DNA of 46,389 nt from a virus. Lineage: Duplodnaviria; Caudoviricetes. How positions within the stretch are numbered: the stretch's first letter is position 1; every line of letters starts with the position of its first letter. This document shows positions 1 through 43,448 of the stretch, piece by piece. The DNA lies in the IMG/VR virus record IMGVR_UViG_3300037851_001501, positions 1-46,389 of that record. The stretch is one strand, 5' to 3'. The notes beneath the pieces are model-generated. The model did no database searches, had not been told where the DNA came from, and saw nothing but the letters and a program-made list of their open reading frames with translations. Both the position numbers and the translations under genes were made by a program.

Positions 1-1098
1 ATGGGCAATGACGCTATGGCTATGGTATTGTTCGGCGATCGGGTGACGGTCGTCGAAGCGCCTGCCGTGGTGAGCGGCGGGCAGACACAGATTGACCGGA
101 TGCGTTCCTGGCTGGATGCCTGGGACTTGTTCCTCTCCAGCCGGAAGGCTGAGAAAACCCGGACGGCCTATAAAAAGGCATGGCAAAATTTGATGGCTTA
201 CACGAATAAGCCATTCTGGGAGATTGACCGGGCGGATCTATTCGCATGGACGGCGGAGATGAAGACCGCCGGTCTGGCCGATGCGACGATCCAGCAGCGG
301 GTGGCGGCAATCAGCGCGTTCTACCAGTATGTGATGGATGAATACGATGTGGTAGACGCGGAGGGGCGGACGTCGCCGCTGTTCAACCGGAACCCGGCGG
401 CGAGTAAGAGCCTGCGTCCGGCGGTGCAGGCATTCTCGAACGTGACGGCGCTGCGGGGAGATCAGGTGAAGGCGCTGCTGCGGGCGATCAACCTGCGGAC
501 GGTGCAGGGGCTGCGGGATTTTGCCCTGTTCACGTTTTATCTGTCGACCGGAAGGCGGAACACGGAGATCAGGGTAGTGAGGAAGGGGGACTTTCGGCAG
601 TCTGGCGTTACGGTGCAGTACCGGTGGAGCGGGAAGCGGAAGGATGGGTGGGATGAGTGTACACCCGATGTGTGGAATAACATCCAGGTGTATTTGGCCG
701 CTGCGGGGCGGCCATGGGAAACCCTGGGGGAGGGGGAGTATATCTTTACCGCGCTGAACGATAGGGCGGGGCGGCTGCACAATGTGGATGCGGAAACATA
801 TAACCCCAGCGGGCAGCCGCTCTCGATGCGGCAGGTTGGGGCGCTGTTGAAGAAGTATGCGCGGCGAGCAGGGCTGGACGCGCAGGCGATTCATGTGCAT
901 GTGCTGCGGCACACGGTGGCTATGCTGATGGACGAGGCAGGCTTTAGCCTGCGGGAGATCCAGGAGCGATTGAAACACAGCAGCCTGGATATGACGAACC
1001 GGTACATGGACCGTCTGAAGGGGCAGCGCAACGATTACTGGGTTAAGGCCAGCGCGCTGCACGATCTGCCGACGCAGCCCTTCCAGCGGAAGAAGTGA
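1..1098 (+). CDS. Tyrosine recombinase/integrase (XerC/D-like)
   Basis: N-terminal SAM-like core-binding region (ATIQQRVAAISAFY); catalytic motifs GRRNTE (R), HVLRH (HxxR), H-SSLDMT-NRY (H, Y). Confidence 0.93.
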   Translation: MGNDAMAMVLFGDRVTVVEAPAVVSGGQTQIDRMRSWLDAWDLFLSSRKAEKTRTAYKKAWQNLMAYTNKPFWEIDRADLFAWTAEMKTAGLADATIQQRVAAISAFYQYVMDEYDVVDAEGRTSPLFNRNPAASKSLRPAVQAFSNVTALRGDQVKALLRAINLRTVQGLRDFALFTFYLSTGRRNTEIRVVRKGDFRQSGVTVQYRWSGKRKDGWDECTPDVWNNIQVYLAAAGRPWETLGEGEYIFTALNDRAGRLHNVDAETYNPSGQPLSMRQVGALLKKYARRAGLDAQAIHVHVLRHTVAMLMDEAGFSLREIQERLKHSSLDMTNRYMDRLKGQRNDYWVKASALHDLPTQPFQRKK

Positions 1099-1974: not shown

Positions 1975-2423
1975 GCGATGAGGTGGATTGCGACCTGGCG
2001 CGGGAGATGCTGTCTTCGGTGGTTGAGTTTTTCGACGAGAAGCAGGGGGAGCTGGGGACTGTGAAATTCTACGAGATGCTGAGCGCGAAGCTGAGCCGTG
2101 TGGCGCGGCGGGAGCAGCCGTGGACATGGCGATATGCGCAGGGGGTGCACAGGGGGACGATCAAGCCATCGAAGGCGTTCGCGGATGCGGTGCTGGCGCT
2201 GGGGGCGGCGCTGGATGAGGTATCCGGGGCGGCGCTGGCGTACACGGTGGAGGTGAGGGTGTATGCGCGTCCGGGGGCGGTGCAGAACAACAGCCTGGTG
2301 TTGGGGGAAAGCAAGATGTGCGCGAGGTCAGGATGCAGGGTGAGCTTTGTTCCGAATGTGCCGTGGCGGAAGTATTGTTCGGCAGACTGCGGCGCGATGG
2401 CGATGGAGGAAATGAGGAGATGA
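1971..2423 (+). CDS. Putative DNA-binding protein with C-terminal zinc finger
   Basis: CARSGC...YCSADC Cys cluster; ATGA-coupled at both ends. Confidence 0.7.
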   Translation: MSDEVDCDLAREMLSSVVEFFDEKQGELGTVKFYEMLSAKLSRVARREQPWTWRYAQGVHRGTIKPSKAFADAVLALGAALDEVSGAALAYTVEVRVYARPGAVQNNSLVLGESKMCARSGCRVSFVPNVPWRKYCSADCGAMAMEEMRR

Positions 2424-2860
2424 TTCCCGTTAGGATCGCTAAAAGAGTTTTGGAAATCAGCACTCCTTCCAGGGTGTTCGAGAAGCCCTGGGAGGAGACA
2501 GTCCTCGAGGTGTGGACTTACGTCCACCCCGAGGACGCGGGAATCAATGCGCGCCTCCGCTCCGCGGAGGAAATAAGCGAAGCGGTATTTTACGCTGTCA
2601 AGGACGATAGCGTAATGATGAAAAAGCGGGGCTGGACGCCCGACTTCTGGTCTGAGTTCCTCGTCTGGGGGGAAGAAAATTGGGAAAACCCAGACGAGGA
2701 AATTCAGGAATGCCTCCATGACATGGAGGCAAGGGTCGAGACTGGACGCCAGGCGGCGCGTCCGGTAGAGGAGGTGATCGAATTTATTCTGGTTACTCCT
2801 CCCGCTCGGTGGGAGGAATGGCCGCTGCTAAGCAGCGGTAAATGGATTTTGGAGGACTGA
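2420..2860 (+). CDS. Acidic hypothetical protein
   Basis: Translationally coupled start; Glu-rich; different G skew from flanks. Confidence 0.6.
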   Translation: MIPVRIAKRVLEISTPSRVFEKPWEETVLEVWTYVHPEDAGINARLRSAEEISEAVFYAVKDDSVMMKKRGWTPDFWSEFLVWGEENWENPDEEIQECLHDMEARVETGRQAARPVEEVIEFILVTPPARWEEWPLLSSGKWILED

Positions 2861-2861
2861 C

Positions 2862-3245
2862 GTGATGATCCTACTCAATTTCTCTCACCCGCTCACGCCT
2901 GCACAGATCGCCCAGGCCGCCGCGCTGGCCGGGCAGCCCATCGAAACCGTGGTGGACCTGCCCGTGCATTTCGACGGCGGGCAGCCCTTTGTGGCCCAAC
3001 TCCACACCTTGGCCGCGCGCATCCCGCTAGACGCCGCTACGCTGCAAACCGCGCCCATACTGGTTAACCTGCCCTCGCTCAACTTCATCGCTGGCCTGCT
3101 GCTGGCCGAGCTGCACGGGCGCATAGGCTACTTCCCCACCATCCTGCGCCTGCGGCGGGTGGATGACAGCCTTCCGCCACGCTTTGAAGTGGCGGAGTTG
3201 CTGAACCTGCAAGAGGCGCGCGACCAGGCGCGCCAGGCTCGGTAG
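2862..3245 (+). CDS. csx15: Csx15-like CRISPR-associated Rossmann-fold protein (putative cOA binder/ring nuclease)
   Basis: N-terminal ILLNFSHPLT motif, LVNLP(S)L, LAELHGRIGYFPTILRLR and FEVAELLNLQ..R..AR match my recollection of the Csx15 family; GGAGG RBS. Confidence 0.8.
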   Translation: MMILLNFSHPLTPAQIAQAAALAGQPIETVVDLPVHFDGGQPFVAQLHTLAARIPLDAATLQTAPILVNLPSLNFIAGLLLAELHGRIGYFPTILRLRRVDDSLPPRFEVAELLNLQEARDQARQAR

Positions 3246-3275
3246 AGAATCTGACGGAATCGGAGGCCGTTCTAT

Positions 3276-3309
3276 GATTATCAACCTTACACGATTATCA
3301 ACCTTACAC
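3276..3309 (+). repeat. 17-bp tandem duplication GATTATCAACCTTACAC x2
   Basis: Exact copies at 3276-3292 and 3293-3309. Confidence 0.95.
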
Positions 3310-3311
3310 CT

Positions 3312-3381
3312 TTCACAGTGGTCGTGGTGACGCCTTACGACGGAGCAATCGGGACTAACTATTAATAACTATTAATTATGA
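3312..3381 (+). repeat. 70-bp direct repeat A, copy 1 (copy 2 at 4366-4435)
   Basis: TTCACAGTGGTCGTGG(T/G)GACGCC...TAACTATTAATAACTATTAATTATGA with 1 mismatch; 3254-3272 also matches 4351-4368 with a 1-nt indel. Confidence 0.95.
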
Positions 3382-3449
3382 ATTGCTATCGGGACAAGTT
3401 CAGCGGGACGGTGTTCTGTAAGCCCGCAGTGAAGCCATACCCGGCGCCG
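3378..3449 (+). repeat. 72-bp direct repeat B, copy 1 (copy 2 at 5206-5277)
   Basis: ATGAATTGCTATCGGGAC...CCCGGCGCCG is identical in both places. Confidence 0.95.
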
Positions 3450-3501
3450 GAGCGCGGGCGCGCCGCCGTTGTGCGCCTGCTCGAAGCGGCGGGATGAAGC
3501 T

Positions 3502-4419
3502 ATGAAAGCGTATAAGATTGTTAATGAAGTAGATGGGCATCGCGGGTTGTTCTACCACAAGGGCTACAACGAAGACCCGCGCCCGTTCAACCCGTCGGGG
3601 GATTGTGAACCCGGCGGTATCTACTACGCCAGGGAGGATACCCTGGCGTTCCTCGGTTATGGGAACGCCGTCTACCGGGTAACGCCGGTGGGCGAAGAAT
3701 ACGCCAACCCCATCCCGCCGCGCAAGTATAAGGCGCACGCCGTAATCTTAGAGCGGGTCGGTGAGGTCTCCGACCTGGCGGTTATCCGCCTGGTCTTAGC
3801 TGAGGGCGCAAACGTCCACGCCGGCAACGATCGTGCCCTGATGTGGGCGGCAACGAACGGGCATACCGACGTGGCGCGCCTGTTGCTGGATGCAGGCATG
3901 GATGCCCAAGCGTGCAACGGCGCGCTGCTGCGGGCGGCGGAGAATGGGCGCGCCGCCATTGTGCGCCTGCTCCTGGATGCCGGCGCGGATGTTCACGTGT
4001 ATTCCGACGCGCCGCTGCAGTGGGCGGCGGAGAATGGGCGCGTTGAGGTTATGCGCCTGCTCCTGGAGGCAGGCGCGGATGTCCACGCCGATAACAACTA
4101 CGCGCTGCGGCTGGCGGTGCATCAAGGGCACGCCGAATGCGTGCGCCTGCTCCTGGATGCCGGCGCGGATGTCCGCGCCTGTCGCAACGAGGCATTAATG
4201 GCGGCGGCGGAGAACGGGCACGCCGAATGCGTGCGCCTGCTGCTGGCGGCGGGCGCAGATGTTCACGCCGGCGATGACGCTGCGCTGCGCCTGGCGGCTA
4301 AGCGGGCGCACACAGAATGCGTTCGCCTGCTCGTTGAGGCAGGCGCGGGAACGGAATCGGAGCCGTTCACAGTGGTCGTGGGGACGCCTTACGACGGAGC
4401 AATCGGGACTAACTATTAA
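3502..4419 (+). CDS. Ankyrin-repeat protein
   Basis: About 6 repeats of GADVHA..D.AL..AAENG..ECVRLLL.A; likely start at ATG 3502 (MKAYK). Confidence 0.9.
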   Translation: MKAYKIVNEVDGHRGLFYHKGYNEDPRPFNPSGDCEPGGIYYAREDTLAFLGYGNAVYRVTPVGEEYANPIPPRKYKAHAVILERVGEVSDLAVIRLVLAEGANVHAGNDRALMWAATNGHTDVARLLLDAGMDAQACNGALLRAAENGRAAIVRLLLDAGADVHVYSDAPLQWAAENGRVEVMRLLLEAGADVHADNNYALRLAVHQGHAECVRLLLDAGADVRACRNEALMAAAENGHAECVRLLLAAGADVHAGDDAALRLAAKRAHTECVRLLVEAGAGTESEPFTVVVGTPYDGAIGTNY

Positions 4420-4435
4420 TAACTATTAATTATGA
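4351..4435 (+). repeat. Direct repeat A, copy 2
   Basis: Matches 3254-3272 joined to 3312-3381; supplies the C-terminus and stop of the ankyrin gene. Confidence 0.93.
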
Positions 4436-4447
4436 GTAGGAGGCGGG

Positions 4448-5086
4448 ATGTTTTCTAAGGATCTGCAACGAGGGTTGATTCAGTGGACGGTGGCGTACAG
4501 CGGCCACGAGGCTCAGCGACATTATATCGGGCTGAGCGGGATTGGGGATTGCGAACGGGTCATCTACGACCGCTTCCGGCAGGGGACGCGGGCGACGGTG
4601 GAGGATCACTTGCTTTGCCGGTTGAGCTATGAGCTGGAGGGGCGGCTGGTAGAGCGGCTGAAGGAGATGGGGGTATACAGCGTCGGGGAGGAGATCGTGC
4701 TCTTCGATGGGCTGGTGCAGGGGCATACGGACGGGGTAATTGGGCGGCAGGATCTGCTGGAGATCAAGACATTGGCGCAGGAACGTTGGATTCCGGAGGG
4801 ACGGAAGCTGCCGGGGCGAGTGTTCTGGCAGGTGCAGGCGTACCTGCATTACACGGGGCGGAAATATGGGCATATCGTGTATCTGGCGAGGGACACGGGG
4901 CTGATCTATACGACGGGGGTGTCGTACAGCGAGGGGGTGGGGCGCAAGATTGAGGAGAAGGTGGGGAGGCTGGTGGAGGCGGCGATGGCGTACAGTCGCC
5001 CGGCGTGTACATGCGGGCGTTGTGAAAATAATGGTCATCAGAATGCCGCCGGCCTTCAGCTCGGCGGCGAAAGGAGCGAATCATGA
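4448..5086 (+). CDS. Solo Cas4-like PD-(D/E)XK exonuclease
   Basis: SGIGDCER (first Cys), GHTDG...LLEIKT, QVQAY, C-terminal CTCGRC (three further Fe-S Cys). Confidence 0.8.
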   Translation: MFSKDLQRGLIQWTVAYSGHEAQRHYIGLSGIGDCERVIYDRFRQGTRATVEDHLLCRLSYELEGRLVERLKEMGVYSVGEEIVLFDGLVQGHTDGVIGRQDLLEIKTLAQERWIPEGRKLPGRVFWQVQAYLHYTGRKYGHIVYLARDTGLIYTTGVSYSEGVGRKIEEKVGRLVEAAMAYSRPACTCGRCENNGHQNAAGLQLGGERSES

Positions 5087-5292
5087 GTACGAGGGTTTTG
5101 TTGGCGGTGTTGATTGCAGTCGTCGCTCTGGCATGGGCAGCGGCGGCATTGGGGTCTTCGGCGGGAGAGCGGGTGTATCTGCCGCTGGTGGCGCGCGCGC
5201 CGGCGATGAATTGCTATCGGGACAAGTTCAGCGGGACGGTGTTCTGTAAGCCCGCAGTGAAGCCATACCCGGCGCCGTTGCAGTTTCGCTAA
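5083..5292 (+). CDS. Small secreted/membrane protein with VYLPLV motif
   Basis: Signal-peptide-like N-terminus; RVYLPLVAR resembles the Chloroflexota YLPL sorting motif; AAGGAG RBS. Confidence 0.7.
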   Translation: MSTRVLLAVLIAVVALAWAAAALGSSAGERVYLPLVARAPAMNCYRDKFSGTVFCKPAVKPYPAPLQFR

Positions 5293-7869: not shown

Positions 7870-7906
7870 AGCGCCCTCACCCTGCCCTCTCCCATGGGGA
7901 GAGGGG
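7870..7906. repeat. REP-like palindrome CCCTCACCC...CCCTCTCCC-N3-GGGAGAGGG, copy 1
   Basis: 24 bp identical to 37107-37130; hairpin. Confidence 0.8.
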
Positions 7907-8049
7907 AAGAATGGACGGGTAGCTCCGATAACAATCCTTAGCGGAAGGGTCTCCCCTACCCCGCGGGTATGTCGGGGGGCGGGGATGGTGGATGGTAATG
8001 CACGCTTTTTGGCGTACGCAAGCAGGCATGATGGCAGGCTGGAGGAGCG

Positions 8050-12048: not shown

Positions 12049-12876
12049 ATGATCTGTCGTATTTGCGGGAATGATGGTATTGGGAGCGAGTGGTCTTCCT
12101 GGGTGAGCGATACATTCACCAATTATGACTTGCTCCTGCCCGGAGAGATAATCTGCGATGACTGCCGATTCTGGTTCGGCCAAAAATCGGACGAGTTGCA
12201 GCGGCGCATGAGAAAGGACAAGCCCCAGAAGATGCAGAACTACTCCCACTTCATCATCGGCGGGGAATGGCGTCCGGTGGGCAAGGGCGACAAGTCGGCG
12301 ATGGCGCAGATACTAACCACGCCGCCATTCCCCGAGATGGCGGCGGTGGCCGTCAGCGGGCAGAAGCATCTGGCCTTCCGGGCGCGGCGCAACCCGCCCG
12401 GCGGCAGCGCTGGATGGGTGCAATACGAGGAGCAGGCCGTCTGGGTGATCCAGGACGACCTGCGGGGATTGCTGAAGTCCATCGAGGCCTTATATGCAGG
12501 GTTCAGCAAGAGCGAGATCGAGAGCGGGCGCTATTTCCCGCAGCGCATCTTGCGGTTTGGCGTGGATCGCTGGCAAGAGTTAGAGGCATGTATTAAGCAC
12601 AAACGGTCAACCGTTATATTTTCTCTGGCGCTGTTCATGGCGCAAAGGAGCGAAGATGGAAACGACGAAGGAGCAGGCGGTAGCACTTCTCAAGTTGATC
12701 TGGCGGGGCGTACCGCCGGCATACAAGAGCCGTTACCGGATGACGATCTGGGAGCAATTCGAGAACGAAATCCGCAGCGCGGCATACACGAGCGACGTGG
12801 GGCGGTTCATCAGCTCTCTATGTTCCCATCTGGGGGCGAGAATAGGGAACACGGCAGGCGAGCGCGAAGAAGCTGA
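12049..12876 (+). CDS. csf1: Type IV CRISPR Csf1 (Cas8-like large subunit)
   Basis: CRIC...DTFTNYD...ICDDC zinc finger and SGQKH motif; first gene of the csf operon. Confidence 0.8.
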   Translation: MICRICGNDGIGSEWSSWVSDTFTNYDLLLPGEIICDDCRFWFGQKSDELQRRMRKDKPQKMQNYSHFIIGGEWRPVGKGDKSAMAQILTTPPFPEMAAVAVSGQKHLAFRARRNPPGGSAGWVQYEEQAVWVIQDDLRGLLKSIEALYAGFSKSEIESGRYFPQRILRFGVDRWQELEACIKHKRSTVIFSLALFMAQRSEDGNDEGAGGSTSQVDLAGRTAGIQEPLPDDDLGAIRERNPQRGIHERRGAVHQLSMFPSGGENREHGRRARRS

Positions 12877-13027
12877 TGCTCTGTTGGCTGCAGTCGATGA
12901 GCGAGAGATGCTGCGATTGTTACGCACTGAGACTACCTTGCTGGTGCTATCGGTGCGGGTAGGTAACCAGGCACGGAGAGATCAGTGGGATGCTGCGCAT
13001 TCTGCCGAGGAGGAGTATGATGTCTAG
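12656..13027 (+). CDS. cas11: Type IV-B small subunit (Cas11-like)
   Basis: 123-aa helical protein (IW..F...IRSAA...FISSLC) between csf1 and csf2; AAGGAG RBS. Confidence 0.72.
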   Translation: METTKEQAVALLKLIWRGVPPAYKSRYRMTIWEQFENEIRSAAYTSDVGRFISSLCSHLGARIGNTAGEREEADALLAAVDEREMLRLLRTETTLLVLSVRVGNQARRDQWDAAHSAEEEYDV

Positions 13028-13994
13028 TTATATGTTTGAGGGCGTGGTAACTGCGCTAACCAGTATCAGTCACATCGGCGACACTTTCGGCGTCAACGCG
13101 AAGCTGCGCCGCGAGAAGATCATTCAGCCCGACGGGACGGTGGAGGACGTGCCCGTCATTAGCGGCAACAGCGTGAGGGGCATCCTGCGTGACCGCGGGA
13201 TGCTGCACATGCTCTATGTGCTAGGGTATGGGATCGATAAGGAGACGGGAGAGGTAAGCGGATTATCGTTGCCAGCCTTCTACTTCCTTTTCTCCGGCGG
13301 TTCGTTGACCAAGATTGCCGGCCACGGGATTGACGTGGACGAGGCGCGCCGTTGGCGGCGTGCTATCCCGCTGGTAGCGATTTTCGGCGGGGCGATGGGT
13401 AACCAGATCATGCCTGGTAAATGTAAGATCGGCAAGCTGATCCCTATCTGTCAGGAGACGGCGCATTTGATCCCACCGCGCTTCGTTAGGGAGACAAAGA
13501 GCATTTGGGACTTGTGCCAGGAGGAGGCGTACACGCGGCGGGACGATGAGAAAAACGAGAACATACGCCAACTGATTGCGCCTGAGGTGCGTATGCTCCT
13601 GGAGGCAAGCGCGGCTGATAAGAGGGCGCAGGTATTGAGCGGTGATGAAGAGATCGCCGGGGCAACGGGCGCAAAGCAGCAGATGCGCTATTATGTCGAG
13701 ACGCTGGCGGCGGGGACGCAACTCTATTGGGAGATCGTTCTGGACGACGTAACGGAGGTGGAGTTTGATGCCTTCTGCGTTACGTTAGCCGAGTTCGGGA
13801 GATTCCCTTATCTCGGGGGGAAAAGCGGCGTGGGGCATGGCAAGGTTACGGTCAAATTCGATCATTGGTACGAGATCAACCCGCGCCTGGGGGTCAACGG
13901 CAAAGAGCTAGATGTATCGCTGGGGACTAAGTACATGCAGCATCTTAGCGACCACAGGGAGGAGATCAAGGGGATGATTGATGGATTACAGTAA
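13020..13994 (+). CDS. csf2: Type IV Csf2 (Cas7-family RAMP backbone)
   Basis: ALTSISH, VPVISGNSVRGILRD, LFSGG, PLVAIFGG, glycine loop LGGKSGVGHG. Confidence 0.9.
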   Translation: MSSYMFEGVVTALTSISHIGDTFGVNAKLRREKIIQPDGTVEDVPVISGNSVRGILRDRGMLHMLYVLGYGIDKETGEVSGLSLPAFYFLFSGGSLTKIAGHGIDVDEARRWRRAIPLVAIFGGAMGNQIMPGKCKIGKLIPICQETAHLIPPRFVRETKSIWDLCQEEAYTRRDDEKNENIRQLIAPEVRMLLEASAADKRAQVLSGDEEIAGATGAKQQMRYYVETLAAGTQLYWEIVLDDVTEVEFDAFCVTLAEFGRFPYLGGKSGVGHGKVTVKFDHWYEINPRLGVNGKELDVSLGTKYMQHLSDHREEIKGMIDGLQ

Positions 13995-14670
13995 CTTGTT
14001 GGTTACAGCCCATTTGCGCGCTCCGGTAGTGGCCGATTGTTGGCTGCCGCTAGACGGCATCCTGTTCTACCAGCACGTCCGCGCCGATCTGGGGGCGCAG
14101 GAGATGACCGTGCCCGGACAATCGGCCCAGCCGAAGGGAGCGCCGATCAAGGGCGGGCGGCTACCCATTGCGATTGTGCATGATAAGCACTGGTATTATC
14201 GCTGCTCCTGGGCGCATTGGGGGCCGCACGTGGATGGGCAGGATCATTGGGTCAAGCGTTTTGACAATGGCTTCGCTGACCTGGTGGACTTCCACGGCCG
14301 GCGCGGGCGAGTAGATACCAGCGCTGCCGCATATAGGGCGTATCACATGCCGGTCAACTATCGCAGCGCCTTGTACGTACAGTGGTATTGCGTGGCTGAT
14401 TATGATTGCCTTGCGCCGCTTTTAGCCGCCGTCACTCATATCGGCAAAAAGGCGGCGCAGGGCTGGGGGCGGGTGTCGCTCTGGGAGGTGGAGCGCATGG
14501 ATTGTGATCGGTCTATCTGGGATGGCGAGCAGCGTCTAATGCGTGGCATCCCTGTCTATCATGCGCGGGGAGGGGAGCCGCGCGGGATATATGGCATCAA
14601 GCCTCCCTACTGGGACAGGCGCAACCAGATGGAGTTGGCAATGCCAGGGGGCAAGGATGCAGTCGCTTAG
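13978..14670 (+). CDS. csf3: Type IV Csf3 (Cas5-family RAMP)
   Basis: LPLDGIL, glycine loop HIGKKAAQGWG, C-terminal KPPYW. Confidence 0.85.
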   Translation: MMDYSNLLVTAHLRAPVVADCWLPLDGILFYQHVRADLGAQEMTVPGQSAQPKGAPIKGGRLPIAIVHDKHWYYRCSWAHWGPHVDGQDHWVKRFDNGFADLVDFHGRRGRVDTSAAAYRAYHMPVNYRSALYVQWYCVADYDCLAPLLAAVTHIGKKAAQGWGRVSLWEVERMDCDRSIWDGEQRLMRGIPVYHARGGEPRGIYGIKPPYWDRRNQMELAMPGGKDAVA

Positions 14671-15388
14671 CGCGCTGGGCGCATTACGTGGTTGGCGACG
14701 CAAGGCGATTCGTGCGCGGGGAGTTATAGCCCAAGCGCTGAGGAATGACGCTCTCTGGTGTGTGTCATTCTCCGGAGGCAAGGACAGCACCGTGCTGCTG
14801 GACTTGACCTTGGCGGTCAAGCCTGATCTGGATATTATCTGGTTCGATGACGGTTGGGATTACCCTGAAACTATCTCCTTCCTTGCGGCGGTCGAGGCGC
14901 GGCTTGGCCGCCGCATACTCAGGGTGGAAATGCCTGTCCGGTCGTCATTTTGGGGCCGCGAGATAGCGTATGGAGGCGATGATCCGAGCTACAGCCATGC
15001 CTGCGACATGGATTACGAGGCGTGGGCGCGACAATACACCGGTGCGTTAATCGGGATGCGCAAAGAGGAGAGTAAACAGAGGTATTTCACCCTCCTGAGG
15101 AGGGGAGAGGTATATTACCACAAGGGGCTAGGGCATTGGCATTGCTGCCCCCTAGCCTCGTGGACATGGCAGGATGTGTGGGGGTATATCCTCGGCAACG
15201 GTCTGTCCTATAACCCGGTATATGACCGGCTAGAGAAGTTAGGAGTTGCGCCGGCTCAAGCCAGGGTTGGGCCGCTTACAGCCTGGATGGTCTACCAGTA
15301 TGGCGCGCTGGCAACGCTCAAGCGCGGCTGGCCGGATTTATACAACCGCTTTTGCGCTGCGCATCCAGAGGCGCGCGCATATGGATAG
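14657..15388 (+). CDS. cysH: CysH/PAPS-reductase-like protein (type IV-B signature)
   Basis: PP-loop SFSGGKDS, GMRKEES..R, PL..WTWQDVW.YI...L.YNPVYD; overlaps csf3. Confidence 0.88.
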   Translation: MQSLSALGALRGWRRKAIRARGVIAQALRNDALWCVSFSGGKDSTVLLDLTLAVKPDLDIIWFDDGWDYPETISFLAAVEARLGRRILRVEMPVRSSFWGREIAYGGDDPSYSHACDMDYEAWARQYTGALIGMRKEESKQRYFTLLRRGEVYYHKGLGHWHCCPLASWTWQDVWGYILGNGLSYNPVYDRLEKLGVAPAQARVGPLTAWMVYQYGALATLKRGWPDLYNRFCAAHPEARAYG

Positions 15389-36616: not shown

Positions 36617-37108
36617 TTGGCTTATAGCGAGGCGAGCATCCGGGCGCAGATTAAGACAGTACTGGAGGGGGTGAGCAACGCGGGGGTGGTGTACGACTAT
36701 GAGCGTTACAGTAACGATTGGTCGGCATTACTGGAGCAGTTCAGGACGACGATCAATGGGGTGGAGCAGATTCGGGCGTGGATGATTTCGCTGGACCCGG
36801 GGCAGAGTATGCGCCAGGAGCTGATCGGGTTTGAGGGGACGGGCGGGGGGGAGAACATTCTGGTGACGTATTCTTACCGCATTCGTGGGTTCATGGGGGT
36901 GGACGATGCGGCGGAAAGCGAGAAGACGTTTACGGCGCTGGCGCTGGCGGTGATGGAGGCGTTGGAGGCAGACGCGACGTTGATGGGGAAGGAGCTGATA
37001 CGCGACACGCCGATTGTGGCAAGTATGACGATGAATTATACGATGCTGGCCGGGGTGCTGTGTCATGGTGTGGAAATCAGGGTCAATCCGCAAGAGGTGG
37101 TGGGTTAG
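36617..37108 (+). CDS. Putative tail terminator
   Basis: Position after the gp10-like gene; IR.QI...L pattern; TTG start. Confidence 0.6.
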   Translation: MAYSEASIRAQIKTVLEGVSNAGVVYDYERYSNDWSALLEQFRTTINGVEQIRAWMISLDPGQSMRQELIGFEGTGGGENILVTYSYRIRGFMGVDDAAESEKTFTALALAVMEALEADATLMGKELIRDTPIVASMTMNYTMLAGVLCHGVEIRVNPQEVVG

Positions 37109-37144
37109 CGCCCTCACCCTGCCCTCTCCCGAAGGGAGAGGGGG
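37107..37144. repeat. REP-like palindrome, copy 2
   Basis: AGCGCCCTCACCCTGCCCTCTCCC-GAA-GGGAGAGGG. Confidence 0.8.
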
Positions 37145-37159
37145 TAATTGGAGGAAGCG

Positions 37160-38108: not shown

Positions 38109-38130
38109 GGCCGCTAAGGAGACTTAGCAG

Positions 38131-39780
38131 ATGAAGCTGGCCGGACGTTTCTTGAAGGTGTGGATTGACGATGCGAGCGGTACGCCGCGGGATGTGAGCG
38201 CGGACATCGAGAGCGTGGAGATCCCGGAGGGGTACGGCGAGCTGGATATGACCGGGATGGGGCAAGGGGGGGAGGATGCAGCGCCGGGGATGCCGGGCTT
38301 TCCAGTGGAGATGGTGGGGATGTTCAATCCGGCGGCGACGACGGGGCTGTTCACGGTGCTGAGCGGGATCATCGGGCAGTATGCAAGCAAGACGGTGACG
38401 ATTCAGGTGGGGAACAATGCGGCGCCGACGGCGACGGATCCGATCTTCGAGGGAGAGTTCTGGTTGCAGAAGATGTCTCCGGGGGCGGTGGTGAAGGGGA
38501 AGAAGGCATTGAAGGCGAGCTTCAAGCCGATGGGTGGGACTGCGCCGAGCTGGTGGACGACGGTGAGCGCGCCGGCGACATGGAGCCGGAGTCTGCCGTT
38601 TACGGTGCAACGGAATTGCCGGGTATTCCGAGCCTCGCCGGCGACATGGAGCATTGGGATGAATAAGCCGGTGGGGAAGGCTTATTACGTAAGCATGACG
38701 GGGAGCGACAGCAACGATGGGCTGACGGCAGCCACGCCGTTGCGGAGGGTAAGCACGGCGATCAATAAGGCGGACGTGGTGATGATTTATGTGGAGGCGG
38801 GGGTCTATGATTTCGATAATTCGTGGGCGACGATTGTCGCGGCGAAGAATCTGTCTATTATCGCGACGGGGGGAAGGGCGGTGTTCTCGGCGCGGTATGC
38901 AGGGCTGGCGTGGGCTAACGTGGGCAGCGATACGTATTCGACGAGCCGGACGAATGTGGCATGGGTGTACGATGCGAATGCGGAGCTGCGGGAGGCGAAC
39001 GGGTTGTACAAGAAGCTGGCGGCGGCGGCTTCGTTAGCGGAATGCCAAGCGACGGCGGGCAGTTTCTATTATGCAACGCCAATCCTGTATGTGCATTTGA
39101 GCGACGGTAGAGCGCCGGATGGCGACTGCCTGGTGATGATTGGGGCTGTGTCTGTATCCATGAATGTGTTCCGAGGGGCTTATACGCTGTACTGCGAGGG
39201 AATTGACTTCGAGGGGGGCTATAACAATGCGATGAGTATCTACTACAACGGGGGAGCGCCGACGGGTTACTTCGCCGACTGCACTTTCAGGTATTCGGCG
39301 AACGATAACGGTTTGGGAGCTTCGGGGGCGCAGTTGTATCTGCAAGATTGCGTGGCGGAGGGCAATTATAACGATGGGTTCACTTATGGGCTGTTGACGG
39401 TTAACAGCCATGCGGTGGAGATTGACTGCGTAGGCAGGTACAACGGGGAGAGCGGGGATATTAACAACGGGAGTACGATACATTACGGGAGTGTGGTGAG
39501 GCTCAACGGGGAGTATCACGATAACGTGGGTCGGAATATCCACGATGTCAATACGGGGGTACAGAGCTGGAATTTGGGATGTTATGCGCATGACTCGGCG
39601 AGCGAGGTGAATGACTGTAATTACGCGGTGGGTACGGGAGGAACGGGGGGAGAGATGTGGCTGGATAGTGTGACGAGCGACGGCAGCACGACGGATTTGG
39701 AGGAGAACAGCGGGGCGACGCTGCTGTACCGGAATTTAATCAGCGACGGGGTGTTCTTAGGCACTCCGGCGGAATATTAA
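38131..39780 (+). CDS. Tail tube domain fused to a pectin-lyase-like beta-helix
   Basis: First ~145 aa nearly duplicate 39793-40233; then YYVS..GSDSNDG.TAATPL and N..DG beta-helix turns. Confidence 0.75.
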   Translation: MKLAGRFLKVWIDDASGTPRDVSADIESVEIPEGYGELDMTGMGQGGEDAAPGMPGFPVEMVGMFNPAATTGLFTVLSGIIGQYASKTVTIQVGNNAAPTATDPIFEGEFWLQKMSPGAVVKGKKALKASFKPMGGTAPSWWTTVSAPATWSRSLPFTVQRNCRVFRASPATWSIGMNKPVGKAYYVSMTGSDSNDGLTAATPLRRVSTAINKADVVMIYVEAGVYDFDNSWATIVAAKNLSIIATGGRAVFSARYAGLAWANVGSDTYSTSRTNVAWVYDANAELREANGLYKKLAAAASLAECQATAGSFYYATPILYVHLSDGRAPDGDCLVMIGAVSVSMNVFRGAYTLYCEGIDFEGGYNNAMSIYYNGGAPTGYFADCTFRYSANDNGLGASGAQLYLQDCVAEGNYNDGFTYGLLTVNSHAVEIDCVGRYNGESGDINNGSTIHYGSVVRLNGEYHDNVGRNIHDVNTGVQSWNLGCYAHDSASEVNDCNYAVGTGGTGGEMWLDSVTSDGSTTDLEENSGATLLYRNLISDGVFLGTPAEY

Positions 39781-39792
39781 CAGGAGGTTGAG

Positions 39793-40233
39793 ATGGCTAA
39801 GTTAGCGGGTCGGTTTTTGAAAGTGTTGATTGACGACAGCGGGGGGACGCCGCGGGATGTGAGCGCGGACATTGACAGTGTGGAGATCCCGGACGAGTAC
39901 GGCGAGTTGGATATGACGGGCTTTGGGGAAGGCTCGGAGAACAGCGCGCCGGGGATGCCGAGCTTTCCAGTGGAGATCGCGGGGATGTTCAATCCGGCGG
40001 CGACGACGGGGCTGTTCACGGTGCTGAGCGGGATCGTGGGGGGGTACACGGGTAGGACGGTGACGGTGCAGGTGGGGAATAATGCGGCGCCGACGACGGG
40101 TGACCGGGAATTCGAGGGGGAGTTCTGGCTGTCGAAGCTTGGAATATCGGCAACGCCGAAGGGTAAGACTGTAATTAAGGCGAGCTTCCGGGTGATGGGG
40201 AGCACTGCGCCGGCGTGGGGTACGGTGTCATGA
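39793..40233 (+). CDS. Major tail tube protein
   Basis: 146 aa, directly before the chaperone; strong AGGAGG RBS. Confidence 0.75.
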   Translation: MAKLAGRFLKVLIDDSGGTPRDVSADIDSVEIPDEYGELDMTGFGEGSENSAPGMPSFPVEIAGMFNPAATTGLFTVLSGIVGGYTGRTVTVQVGNNAAPTTGDREFEGEFWLSKLGISATPKGKTVIKASFRVMGSTAPAWGTVS

Positions 40234-40807: not shown

Positions 40808-40853
40808 TTGGGGAGTTTGGGAAAGGGGTGGCGCTCACGCAGGCTTTCTCTTG

Positions 40854-40898
40854 CCCTCACCCCGCCCCTCTCCCAAAGGGAGAGGGGCGGGGTGAGGG
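40854..40898. repeat. REP-like palindrome, copy 3 (perfect 21-bp stem)
   Basis: CCCTCACCCCGCCCCTCTCCC-AAA-GGGAGAGGGGCGGGGTGAGGG. Confidence 0.85.
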
Positions 40899-40970: not shown

Positions 40971-43448
40971 ATGGATTATGTGGCGTCTTTGGTGAAGGGC
41001 AGGCGTGAGTTTGATCTGGGGGGGAATGGGGTGTTCAAGCTGGGGAGGGGTTTCATGCCGCCGGCAGTTGCGGAGAGTTATAGCATTGCGGACGGGACGG
41101 CGGGGAACGCGTACGGGGGCGGTCGGCGGGTGGGAAGGAAGGGGAGCGTGATGCAGTATGCGCTGCCGCTGCACGCGGAGGGGGGATCAAACGCGGGGAT
41201 CGAGCGGGGGCTGGACGAGTTGAATTCGTTTTTGGGGGAGGCGGGGGACGAGCATGAGCCAGTGTATTTTCGGTTCAGGCCGAAGTCTTCGATGGGGGGC
41301 GAGCCGCTGCTGGGGTCGGCGGATGCTTCGCGGCAGGTGAAGGTGCTGGGAGGCAGGGTGTTTAAGGGGGATACGTATTGGCAGGGGCGGACGCGGGAGG
41401 CGAGGGTGGCAAACTGCCAGGCGCTGTTGACGCTGGATCCGATTTTGGAGAGCGCGGTGGATCAGTATGCGGGGAGCGCAATGGGGGGAGTAATTGAAGA
41501 TTGGGTGGGGACGGTGAATGGGTTCAGCCGGGGGGTGATTGTGGCGCCGGCGGTGGATAATCGGTTTCCGAACCCGATATTCAGTCATGGGACGTATGAC
41601 ACGGGGTGGAGCGTGACAAACGCGGCGCTGTTAAAGACGCGCGTGACGGAGAAGAGACTGCGGCTGTTTGGGGCGGCGAGCGTGCTGTTGATTAACACGG
41701 CAGCGACAGATCATGCATTGGTCAGTTGGTTGACGCTGACGGTGGCTACATACACGGTGAGTTTTTATGTGCGCAAGGCGGATGGATCGGCAGTGACGAG
41801 CGCGGATTGCGTGGTGTGGAACGAGGTGGAGGTAACTTCGACGTTTACGCACGTAGGGAATGGGTGGTACCGAGTTTCGGGAAGTTTCACGGGGGCGGCG
41901 AGCGCGAAGAGCATCGGGATTAGGGTGAAGGCGCGAAAGATGCTTTACGCAGACGGTTTCCAATGCGAGCTGGGGGATTATGCCACGCCGTTGTGCCACG
42001 GTGATCTATTCGGGCATAGCTGGTCGGGAACGCAGCACAACTCTACAAGCAGCCGGGCCGTGGGGCGTTTGCGCTACGATGAGTGGGTGTTAAAGGCACG
42101 CGATTTTACGTGGTGGGTAGCGGTGAAGGTTAATCGAAGCAGCGCGGCTATTGGGAGCAACGTGCGCCTATTGTACGAGGAGACGAGTAATGCGCGTCTT
42201 TCGGTGGAGGCGAGCACAGGGAGGGTTCTGTGGACGGATAACGTGAATACGGCGAACGGGGCGGCAACGGCATTTGCGGCGGGGGATATACTAATCATTC
42301 ATGCTACGCTGGATGATGGCGGTCTAAAGCTGTACCGCAACGGGGCGGCAGACGGAAGCGGAAGTGCAGCTTTTGAGGTACTGAGTGGAGCGACGCGGTT
42401 GTATATCGGTTCTTCGGACAGCCCTGCGGAACATTGCGGGTTTACCTTCTTGGGGGCGGGGACGCGGGATCGGGCAATGAGCGCGGGGGAGGTGGCGGCG
42501 CATTATGCGGATATGGCGGAGCGGGCGCGGGGGGGCGATGGGCTGGGGCAGCGGGTGGACTGGCTGCCGTACCTGCACACGGAGGACGGGGACGGGACGC
42601 TGGATAACGCGGATGACAGTACGCGTGAGAACACGGGGGTGATTGCGGGTGTGGCGGGGAATATGCCGGCGCGGACGATGTTCAGGCTGTATACACCCAA
42701 TTTAAGCACTAGCGTGTGGCTGGGGCTGCACAGCGACCGGCTGGATGATTTTCAGAAGATGGCGCGGCGGTGGTATCTTGAGGCGAGCGGGACGGCGGAC
42801 GCAAACGCGAGTGGAGGAGAATATGAGAGCATGTCTGCGCCGACGGGGACGAGGCCATTTGTGGAGATTGCGGTAGATACACCCGATAATGTGCGCGGGG
42901 AATTTCACTACTTTCTGAGGGCGAAGCGTTCAGCGGCGGCAGAGGCTGCGGCGGGGTATTATCTTCAATACAACGGCGGGTATATATGGCTGGAGGCGAA
43001 TAAGGTGCTCAACCCGACGACGAGCTACCGGTGGTGGTATTTGGGGAAGCTGTCGTTCGAGCCGCCGGCGCGGATGATGCCGGAGAACGAATTGAACTTG
43101 AACCTAGGCATCAACATCGAGGATTTGAATGCGAGCGGGAGTTTCCATTTCGATTATGGGATGGTCATTAATGGGAAGGTGGCGAAGCTCAATTTAGAAC
43201 TAACGTCACGGCCGGGAGAGACGAAAGTGGCTTCGGCGTATCCCAATTATCTCCGGGTGCAAGGGAAGCAGGTGATCCTAGATGTCGGCGTGTTCTTGGG
43301 TTATTTGCAGGGGGACGTGATCGAGGTGGAGCCGGAGCGGTATAACCTGCTGACGGGGGCGCTGGCGGACGATGGTGGGCTGCATGTGTTGACGGCAGGA
43401 ATCACGGTGAGCGAGGTGCGGATCACGCCGCGGTGGGCGTTGATGTAG
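40971..43448 (+). CDS. Distal tail/receptor-binding protein with carbohydrate-binding and LamG-like domains
   Basis: YTVSFYVRK...VGNGWYRVS..Q.E.G.YATP; LKLYRNG...LYIG LamG-like; ends ITPRW. Confidence 0.65.
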   Translation: MDYVASLVKGRREFDLGGNGVFKLGRGFMPPAVAESYSIADGTAGNAYGGGRRVGRKGSVMQYALPLHAEGGSNAGIERGLDELNSFLGEAGDEHEPVYFRFRPKSSMGGEPLLGSADASRQVKVLGGRVFKGDTYWQGRTREARVANCQALLTLDPILESAVDQYAGSAMGGVIEDWVGTVNGFSRGVIVAPAVDNRFPNPIFSHGTYDTGWSVTNAALLKTRVTEKRLRLFGAASVLLINTAATDHALVSWLTLTVATYTVSFYVRKADGSAVTSADCVVWNEVEVTSTFTHVGNGWYRVSGSFTGAASAKSIGIRVKARKMLYADGFQCELGDYATPLCHGDLFGHSWSGTQHNSTSSRAVGRLRYDEWVLKARDFTWWVAVKVNRSSAAIGSNVRLLYEETSNARLSVEASTGRVLWTDNVNTANGAATAFAAGDILIIHATLDDGGLKLYRNGAADGSGSAAFEVLSGATRLYIGSSDSPAEHCGFTFLGAGTRDRAMSAGEVAAHYADMAERARGGDGLGQRVDWLPYLHTEDGDGTLDNADDSTRENTGVIAGVAGNMPARTMFRLYTPNLSTSVWLGLHSDRLDDFQKMARRWYLEASGTADANASGGEYESMSAPTGTRPFVEIAVDTPDNVRGEFHYFLRAKRSAAAEAAAGYYLQYNGGYIWLEANKVLNPTTSYRWWYLGKLSFEPPARMMPENELNLNLGINIEDLNASGSFHFDYGMVINGKVAKLNLELTSRPGETKVASAYPNYLRVQGKQVILDVGVFLGYLQGDVIEVEPERYNLLTGALADDGGLHVLTAGITVSEVRITPRWALM

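Follow-up and report, generated by a model that had tools for sequence, protein, structure and literature searches.

The viral record analyzed here (46,389 nucleotides, hereafter the window), a provirus that is 100% complete, encodes an intact Csx15 outside any type III CRISPR locus. Our preferred reading, to which we give a probability of about 0.5, is that this protein is a ring nuclease for cA4 with which the phage counters type III CRISPR of its host during infection or induction, its activity being predicted by analogy to characterized Csx15 enzymes. The gene and its surroundings are as follows:

1-1098, plus strand: tyrosine integrase gene (PF00589, E 2.7e-20), indicating a temperate life style
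2420-2860, plus strand: gene upstream of csx15 for an acidic 146-amino-acid protein of no family; third-position skew 0.10
2850-2855, plus strand: Shine-Dalgarno-like GGAGGA, recognized from the sequence, within the 3′ end of the upstream gene
2865-3245, plus strand: csx15, intact, 126 amino acids, with an alternative GTG start at 2862; identified by NF040560, PDB 9teu, key residues and conserved columns
3246-3501, plus strand: patchwork spacer of short copies of other phage stretches
3502-4419, plus strand: ankyrin-repeat accessory gene (Pfam Ank_2, E 2.8e-55); third-position skew 0.02, the second-lowest

The open reading frame as called (2862-3245, plus strand) begins with GTG and encodes 127 amino acids. 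Because homologues start at the methionine encoded by the ATG at 2865, the protein most likely has 126, and its residues are numbered here from that ATG. A sequence-only reading had described a Csx15-like protein with an NFSHP motif. The motif is present in the translated frame, and the family assignment is borne out by a match over the whole of the NCBIfam Csx15 model NF040560 (positions 1-125 of 125, E 1e-45, 155 bits against a curated cut-off of 35) and by the PADLOC Csx15 model (E 2e-31). Searches with the protein returned no Pfam family and no PHROG match. The product is a lone Csx15 domain of 126-127 amino acids with no fused effector, the upstream gene ending at 2860.

csx15 lies between the integrase gene and the exonuclease, helicase and primase genes and is co-oriented with this replication-gene run, so that its earlier placement among early genes holds by position only. 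The placement of GGAGGA suggests that csx15 is co-translated with the upstream gene in one operon, and no separate promoter-like site was found upstream of csx15 on the plus strand. The upstream gene, which was possibly acquired together with csx15, belongs to no PADLOC or PHROG family and gave no usable Atlas match. It was also considered as an anti-CRISPR and set aside, as no family was found.

Comparison with solved structures places the phage protein close to characterized Csx15. By sequence it matches CliCsx15 (9teu) at E 2.9e-15, CbCash in its Csx15 domain at 2e-13 and PfCsx15 at 8.9e-6, and a profile-based match to 9teu reaches E 7.6e-26. Aligned with 9teu, its H8, H84 and F107 correspond to CliCsx15 H13, H90 and Y113, with a constant seven-residue offset in chain numbering, and R119, R123 and R126 align with the CliCsx15 tail arginines. 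The CsCsx15 residues H8, R119, R123 and R126 bear the same numbers as those of the phage protein, a match of number and spacing only and not of alignment. R126 is the last residue, as is its counterpart in CliCsx15 and in 10 of 80 host copies. All 80 host copies have the head histidine H8, and 33 of the 34 columns that are at least 95% conserved among them are kept in the phage protein, the sole exception being M87I. The residues that mark catalytic Csx15 ring nucleases, a head histidine, a central histidine (H84) and three tail arginines, are thus all in place; with F107 they make up the catalytic and filament set. Such conservation does not tell selection acting in the phage apart from a capture that is merely recent.

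The sequence-only reading had proposed comparison by HMM and by structure as a check. The HMM returned a full-length Csx15, and an AlphaFold2 model of moderate confidence (pLDDT 79, pTM 0.55) has five strands with flanking helices. Two SAVED domains head the structure search (Z 7.2 and 7.1, rmsd ~4, 114-116 residues aligned), followed at middling Z values by Argonaute MID, SAVED and many CARF proteins. Foldseek with the model gave no match at E ≤ 0.001, and Csx15 entries were absent among the matches listed. The protein thus probably has a Rossmann-like fold related to SAVED and CARF, the sequence match being stronger evidence than the Z values.

How might such a protein act? As described in two preprints, characterized Csx15 dimers assemble head-to-tail on cA4 and form a composite, metal-independent site from H8 and the tail arginines; the H8A, R118A and R125A mutants of HaCsx15, whose tail set is R118/R122/R125, are inactive, and expression of HaCsx15 or CliCsx15 rescues E. 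coli from cA4 effectors (bioRxiv 10.64898/2026.10.26.761840, 10.64898/2026.01.21.700848). Since all the cutting residues of the characterized enzymes are present in the phage protein, a ring nuclease is favored over a pure sponge, and with every key residue there, cA4 cleavage is its most probable biochemistry. We envision that csx15 was captured by the phage from a type III CRISPR locus of the Anaerolineae and that, as in homologues, the encoded dimers would assemble head-to-tail on cA4, with a composite metal-independent active site to which one dimer contributes H8 and the next R119, R123 and R126. Cleavage of cA4 would yield linear dinucleotides, leaving Csx1-type and CARF-nuclease effectors inactive and the host's CARF-effector response weakened during infection or prophage induction.

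The record itself has the gene content of a phage, with integrase, exonuclease, AAA helicase, primase, ParB, terminase, head-morphogenesis and capsid genes. Several further features were seen. Three palindromic elements resembling repeated extragenic palindromes lie at 7870-7915, 37107-37152 and 40851-40898, and similar DNA occurs in one of the genomes searched (G060). An imperfect palindrome of ~30 bases (family D8), which may serve in regulation or processing, recurs between genes at 7920, 16426, 22489, 27755 and 40937. The starts of two adjoining late genes share a 300-base direct repeat with 81% identity (38117-38416 and 39782-40081). ARAGORN called a tRNA-Pro at 41205-41292, within a long open reading frame, which is probably spurious, and a DUF5131 (gp37-like) gene at 17028-17885 matches the PADLOC candidate defense models PDC-M41B and PDC-M30B.

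Type III components were sought in the record by two routes. TIGR02578 (Cas10/Csm1) matched none of eight viral records including this phage, with two of two host genomes positive as controls, and 15 Cas queries drawn from two type III-A loci of Anaerolineae found no match in the window. The earlier statement that no type III locus lies nearby therefore stands, and the gene sits outside such a locus, as proposed for AcrIII-3. Its description as stand-alone fits the immediate surroundings of csx15, which hold no cas neighbors, but not the genome, which carries a type IV-B-like module 9 kb downstream. Host copies are embedded differently: whereas none of the 15 queries matched in the window, 77 of the best 80 of 472 genome loci have a cas match, 69 have cas6 and 59 have a Csx1 or CARF-nuclease gene. 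Among the best 80 metagenome loci, 69 have a cas match. Two fully annotated host loci are type III-A and encode csm2-5, CARF-HEPN, csx15, cas6 and cas1.

These relatives point to where the gene probably came from. The closest ones, with ~61-71% identity, are in Anaerolineae genomes; the best 80 of the 472 genome loci are nearly all from Chloroflexota, mostly Anaerolineae; and the two named bacterial proteins near the top of 2386 protein matches at E ≤ 0.001 are from Chloroflexi. One Anaerolinea genome with a type III-A locus contains a prophage-like region that has five genes in common with the phage (32-50% identity), so the phage host is likely to be a member of the Anaerolineae. No near-identical csx15 donor was found among 401 genomes of the class, with two candidates scored per genome; the best match had 76% DNA identity over 332 bp. 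No close phage relative for an empty-site comparison was found with the helicase or the exonuclease as query, and a single-protein scan of viral sequences also came back empty.

Third-position G/C skew agrees with a host origin. The csx15 value of -0.06 is the lowest of the 44 phage genes delimited here, some with approximate starts (z -2.5); the other 43 average 0.44 ± 0.20 and the 80 host copies -0.01 ± 0.18. The ankyrin gene and the upstream gene come next, along with the type IV genes and one gene whose frame is doubtful. The host-like skew fits recent capture, and together with the 33 host-conserved columns it lends support to the earlier proposal of a captured host gene.

Other viruses carry csx15 as well. 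A profile scan of viral contigs yielded seven other loci encoding six distinct proteins; because the scan went through two short patterns, distant viral copies will have been missed. All six proteins keep H8, H84 and the three tail arginines, and they are 46-56% identical to the phage protein. No cas match was found near any of the seven loci, whose neighbors (75 of 103 called ORFs scanned) include methylases, holin, exonuclease, baseplate, ParA/ParB, integrase and pentapeptide repeats. Repeat-protein genes of the ankyrin or pentapeptide type occur near csx15 in three of the seven distinct viral carriers (window 3502-4419, L001:7842-8576 and L004:9459-10004). No csx15 match was found in 50,697 GenBank phages or in 72,556 plasmids (PLSDB). 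For five of the six viral copies, the nearest host copy matches as well as or better than any other viral copy, with a margin of less than 3 points in two cases. A quick 87-row tree needs 4-5 label changes; a test with 38 of the 87 rows does not reject a single viral clade (p-AU 0.327), and a grouping of the phage copy with that of the other type IV-B carrier is not rejected either (p-AU 0.458). As a single viral origin is not rejected, these comparisons are only suggestive of repeated capture by viruses.

If the phage deploys Csx15 against type III immunity, is the enzyme fast enough? The slow turnover of characterized Csx15 is the main objection to an anti-CRISPR role. Reported kcat values are 0.27-2.4 per min (bioRxiv 10.64898/2026.10.26.761840), and turnover by CliCsx15 is described as very slow (bioRxiv 10.64898/2026.01.21.700848). 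Chi et al. obtained in vivo rescue by over-expression and suggest that, because it is slow, Csx15 is perhaps of little use as an anti-CRISPR (bioRxiv 10.64898/2026.01.21.700848). Two further observations count against the role: csx15 was found in no GenBank phage or plasmid, in no PHROG and at only seven loci of the viral scan, and 1016 host spacers and 54 repeat-like units from 60 loci gave no convincing match to the phage.

One alternative, which we regard as unlikely, is that the prophage makes Csx15 at a low level to clear cA4 raised by leaky prophage transcripts, protecting the lysogen and not the lytic cycle. An integrase gene is present and the record is classed as a provirus, lysogens have been reported to lose fitness when type III-A systems target their prophages (PMC5754349), slow turnover would suit low cA4 levels (bioRxiv 10.64898/2026.01.21.700848), and viral copies are described as lying mostly in prophage regions (bioRxiv 10.64898/2026.10.26.761840). 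A tyrosine integrase is present in three of the seven distinct carriers (the window, G027 and G028), but the two large carriers with a completeness of at least 90% (G025 and G026) gave no match to a tyrosine or serine recombinase. Moreover, csx15 is situated in the replication-gene run with no promoter-like site of its own found on the plus strand, and hosts often own a csx15, both of which argue against this reading.

It is also conceivable, and to our minds similarly unlikely, that csx15 is a small host gene recently swept into a recombination hot spot, where it persists undecayed and brings the phage no benefit. Its un-ameliorated composition and its rarity in viruses would agree with this, as would the spacer directly downstream (3246-3501), which from its make-up is probably a recombination scar. 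The spacer contains 70 bp from 4366-4435 (one mismatch; copied pieces derive from 4351-4435), 72 bp identical to 5206-5277, a 27-bp ankyrin-like piece and a 17-bp tandem duplication at 3276-3309, just after a GGAGG and an ATG at 3274 that may be a former gene start. A motif had raised the idea that 3274-3365 is a relic of a Crn4 gene, which is not supported: no match was found in PHROGs, GenBank phages or viral contigs; against the PDB this stretch gave only summed low-score matches to repeat proteins, with no stretch passing alone.

Signs that the gene recombines also speak for a passenger. A database variant on a 4,521-base contig (P0121) is identical to the phage protein over residues 1-86 and thereafter differs at 10 of 40 positions and is two residues longer; being near-identical with a different C-terminal third, it points to recombination of csx15, and it arose either by recombination between csx15 genes or by chimeric assembly. 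In addition, no csx15 match was found within the 38 kb examined of the related Anaerolinea prophage-like region. However, csx15 has been excised cleanly from its usual neighbors cas6 and csx1 and has a ribosome-binding-like site in front. The six other viral copies keep the active-site residues despite their divergence (46-56% identity), and the phage gene, at least 29% diverged from every host copy found (best match 71%), still keeps 33 of 34 conserved columns.

Quite improbable, in our estimation, is that the protein works mainly as a cA4 sponge, or that its main target is the CBASS trinucleotides cA3 and cAAG in place of type III cA4. PfCsx15 is reported to have the His and Arg set yet barely to cut, sequestering cA4 (bioRxiv 10.64898/2026.01.21.700848), and conserved residues are therefore no guarantee of cutting. 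The phage protein, however, is far nearer to active CliCsx15 than to PfCsx15 (E 2.9e-15 against 8.9e-6), and type III systems are said to produce much messenger, which disfavors sponging (bioRxiv 10.64898/2026.01.21.700848). As to CBASS, CsCsx15 and HaCsx15 cut 3′3′3′-cAAG and the authors propose a broad-spectrum viral use (bioRxiv 10.64898/2026.10.26.761840), but relatives of the phage gene adjoin type III CARF effectors.

There is very little chance that host csx15 DNA was fused into a phage contig during assembly: short internal repeats on the 3′ side of csx15, the identity of P0121 over residues 1-86 and the presence of the region in a single public run, possibly the source sample, would allow for such an artifact, but a read contig bridges the 5′ junction without differences, depth over csx15 equals that of the phage arms, and no host cas DNA flanks the gene. 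That run, which as the possible source sample is not independent evidence, yielded a 4,953-base contig that covers 1500-2909 with zero differences and thereby spans the 5′ junction. Overlapping contigs (2880-3124 and 3095-3358) continue through csx15 past its stop at a depth of 18-20, against 17.9-18 in the phage arms. Support was pieced together from such overlaps, no one piece running across the whole csx15 region, and in this run no contig covers ~4440-5170, a gap that carries no weight because a filter omits some records. A chimera between csx15 and the phage is thus unlikely.

The same phage has a second CRISPR-related locus, separate from csx15:

12049-15388, plus strand: array-less type IV-B-like module (PADLOC, Pfam), 9 kb downstream of csx15
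12049-12876, plus strand: csf1/cas8 (PADLOC typeIV_Cas8, 9e-22)
12656-13027, plus strand: cas11 (PADLOC Cas11, 6e-28)
13020-13994, plus strand: csf2/cas7 (PADLOC Cas7, 4e-80)
13978-14670, plus strand: csf3/cas5 (PADLOC Cas5, 7e-52)
to 15388, plus strand: cysH-like gene (PAPS_reduct, 2.4e-24)

This gene set (csf1, csf2, csf3, cas11, a cysH-like gene and no array) is that of type IV-B, with NCBIfam Csf1, Csf2 and Csf3 scores that are under their cut-offs. Neither Rfam nor repeat scans found a CRISPR array in the record; a search with RF01315 matched no sequence at all and is therefore uninformative. The csf1 frame overruns cas11 by ~220 bases and its profile match ends near residue 200 of 275; the C-terminal extension may stem from a lost stop. 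Low third-position skew suggests that the module, too, was acquired. Relatives of its Cas7 with 55-74% identity occur in 21 viral loci.

The two loci occur together in two of the seven distinct csx15 carriers, which are unrelated phages. The second, one of the seven other csx15 records, is a complete 100-kb phage with type IV cas8, cas11, cas7 and cas5 ~28 kb from csx15; in this phage (L109, G025:C1:55904-59824, and L004), two extra genes are inserted among the four of the module. None of the 21 records found with the phage's Cas7 has csx15, including the four with a completeness of at least 90%, whereas all five positive controls were detected; hence the two loci are not obligately linked. 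Viral type IV-B modules have been described (PMC10541130), and guide-RNA sponging is one hypothesis for type IV-B (PMC8175902). A literature search on type IV-B, ring nuclease and phage found the pairing with csx15 in no title or opening. A more far-reaching and unlikely reading is that some Chloroflexota phages might carry a two-layer counter-CRISPR kit made from host Cas parts, in which IV-B would sequester guide RNAs while Csx15, captured more than once, would remove the cA4, perhaps also the CBASS, alarm.

The phage copy can be set beside several known systems. Like HaCsx15, CsCsx15 and CliCsx15 (PDB 9TEU), it consists of one domain of full length, and its His/aromatic head and Arg tail residues agree with theirs, but unlike these cellular proteins it is encoded without cas10, csx1 or cas6 and is known here from its sequence. 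PfCsx15 (PDB 9TET), an orphan cA4 sponge, is likewise encoded by a gene that stands alone, and shares the fold and the set of residues; it differs in being cellular, in its reported place in a minor divergent cluster and in its weaker match to the phage protein (E 8.9e-6). The phage protein lacks the N-terminal effector of Cash (Schlafen-Csx15), and CbCash matches it by the C-terminal part only. AcrIII-1, which is DUF1874, AcrIII-2 (vSAVED) and viral Crn4 are described as viral enzymes that destroy cOA messengers but belong to other families, the folds of AcrIII-1 and Crn4 being unrelated to that of Csx15. vSAVED is reported to be structurally related to Csx15 and to resemble a fused double Csx15 (bioRxiv 10.64898/2026.10.26.761840, 10.1101/2025.07.17.665281). 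Type IV-B modules of mobile elements have the same csf1, cas11, csf2, csf3 and cysH-like genes and no array (PMC8175902, PMC10541130), whereas the present module shares its phage with csx15.

The nearest precedent is viral Csx15 itself, tentatively named AcrIII-3 in October 2026 from more than 20 sequences, mostly in IMG/VR prophage regions and without tests; according to the preprint, in vivo inhibition of type III immunity has been shown for no viral member (bioRxiv 10.64898/2026.10.26.761840). In both cases a metagenomic record of a virus or prophage encodes a homologue of Csx15, for which a role as ring-nuclease anti-CRISPR is proposed. The example named there is from a Lokiarchaeota virus, whereas the present copy is host-like, of Anaerolineae type and from a phage with a type IV-B-like module. 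The phage csx15 may be among those >20 sequences. As viral Csx15 has already been proposed as an anti-CRISPR, it adds a member to a proposed family and no new kind of system.

The 2026 papers disagree on whether viruses make use of Csx15: Chi et al. report seeing none in phage genomes and voice doubt (bioRxiv 10.64898/2026.01.21.700848), against the AcrIII-3 proposal. The copy described here offers a clean test case: its provirus is complete, its residues are canonical, and the class to which its host probably belongs has type III-A loci and CARF effectors that can be reconstructed in E. coli. Should an assay prove positive, AcrIII-3 would become a demonstrated family rather than a name, and the result could show whether a slow, filament-forming enzyme serves a phage, perhaps also against CBASS.
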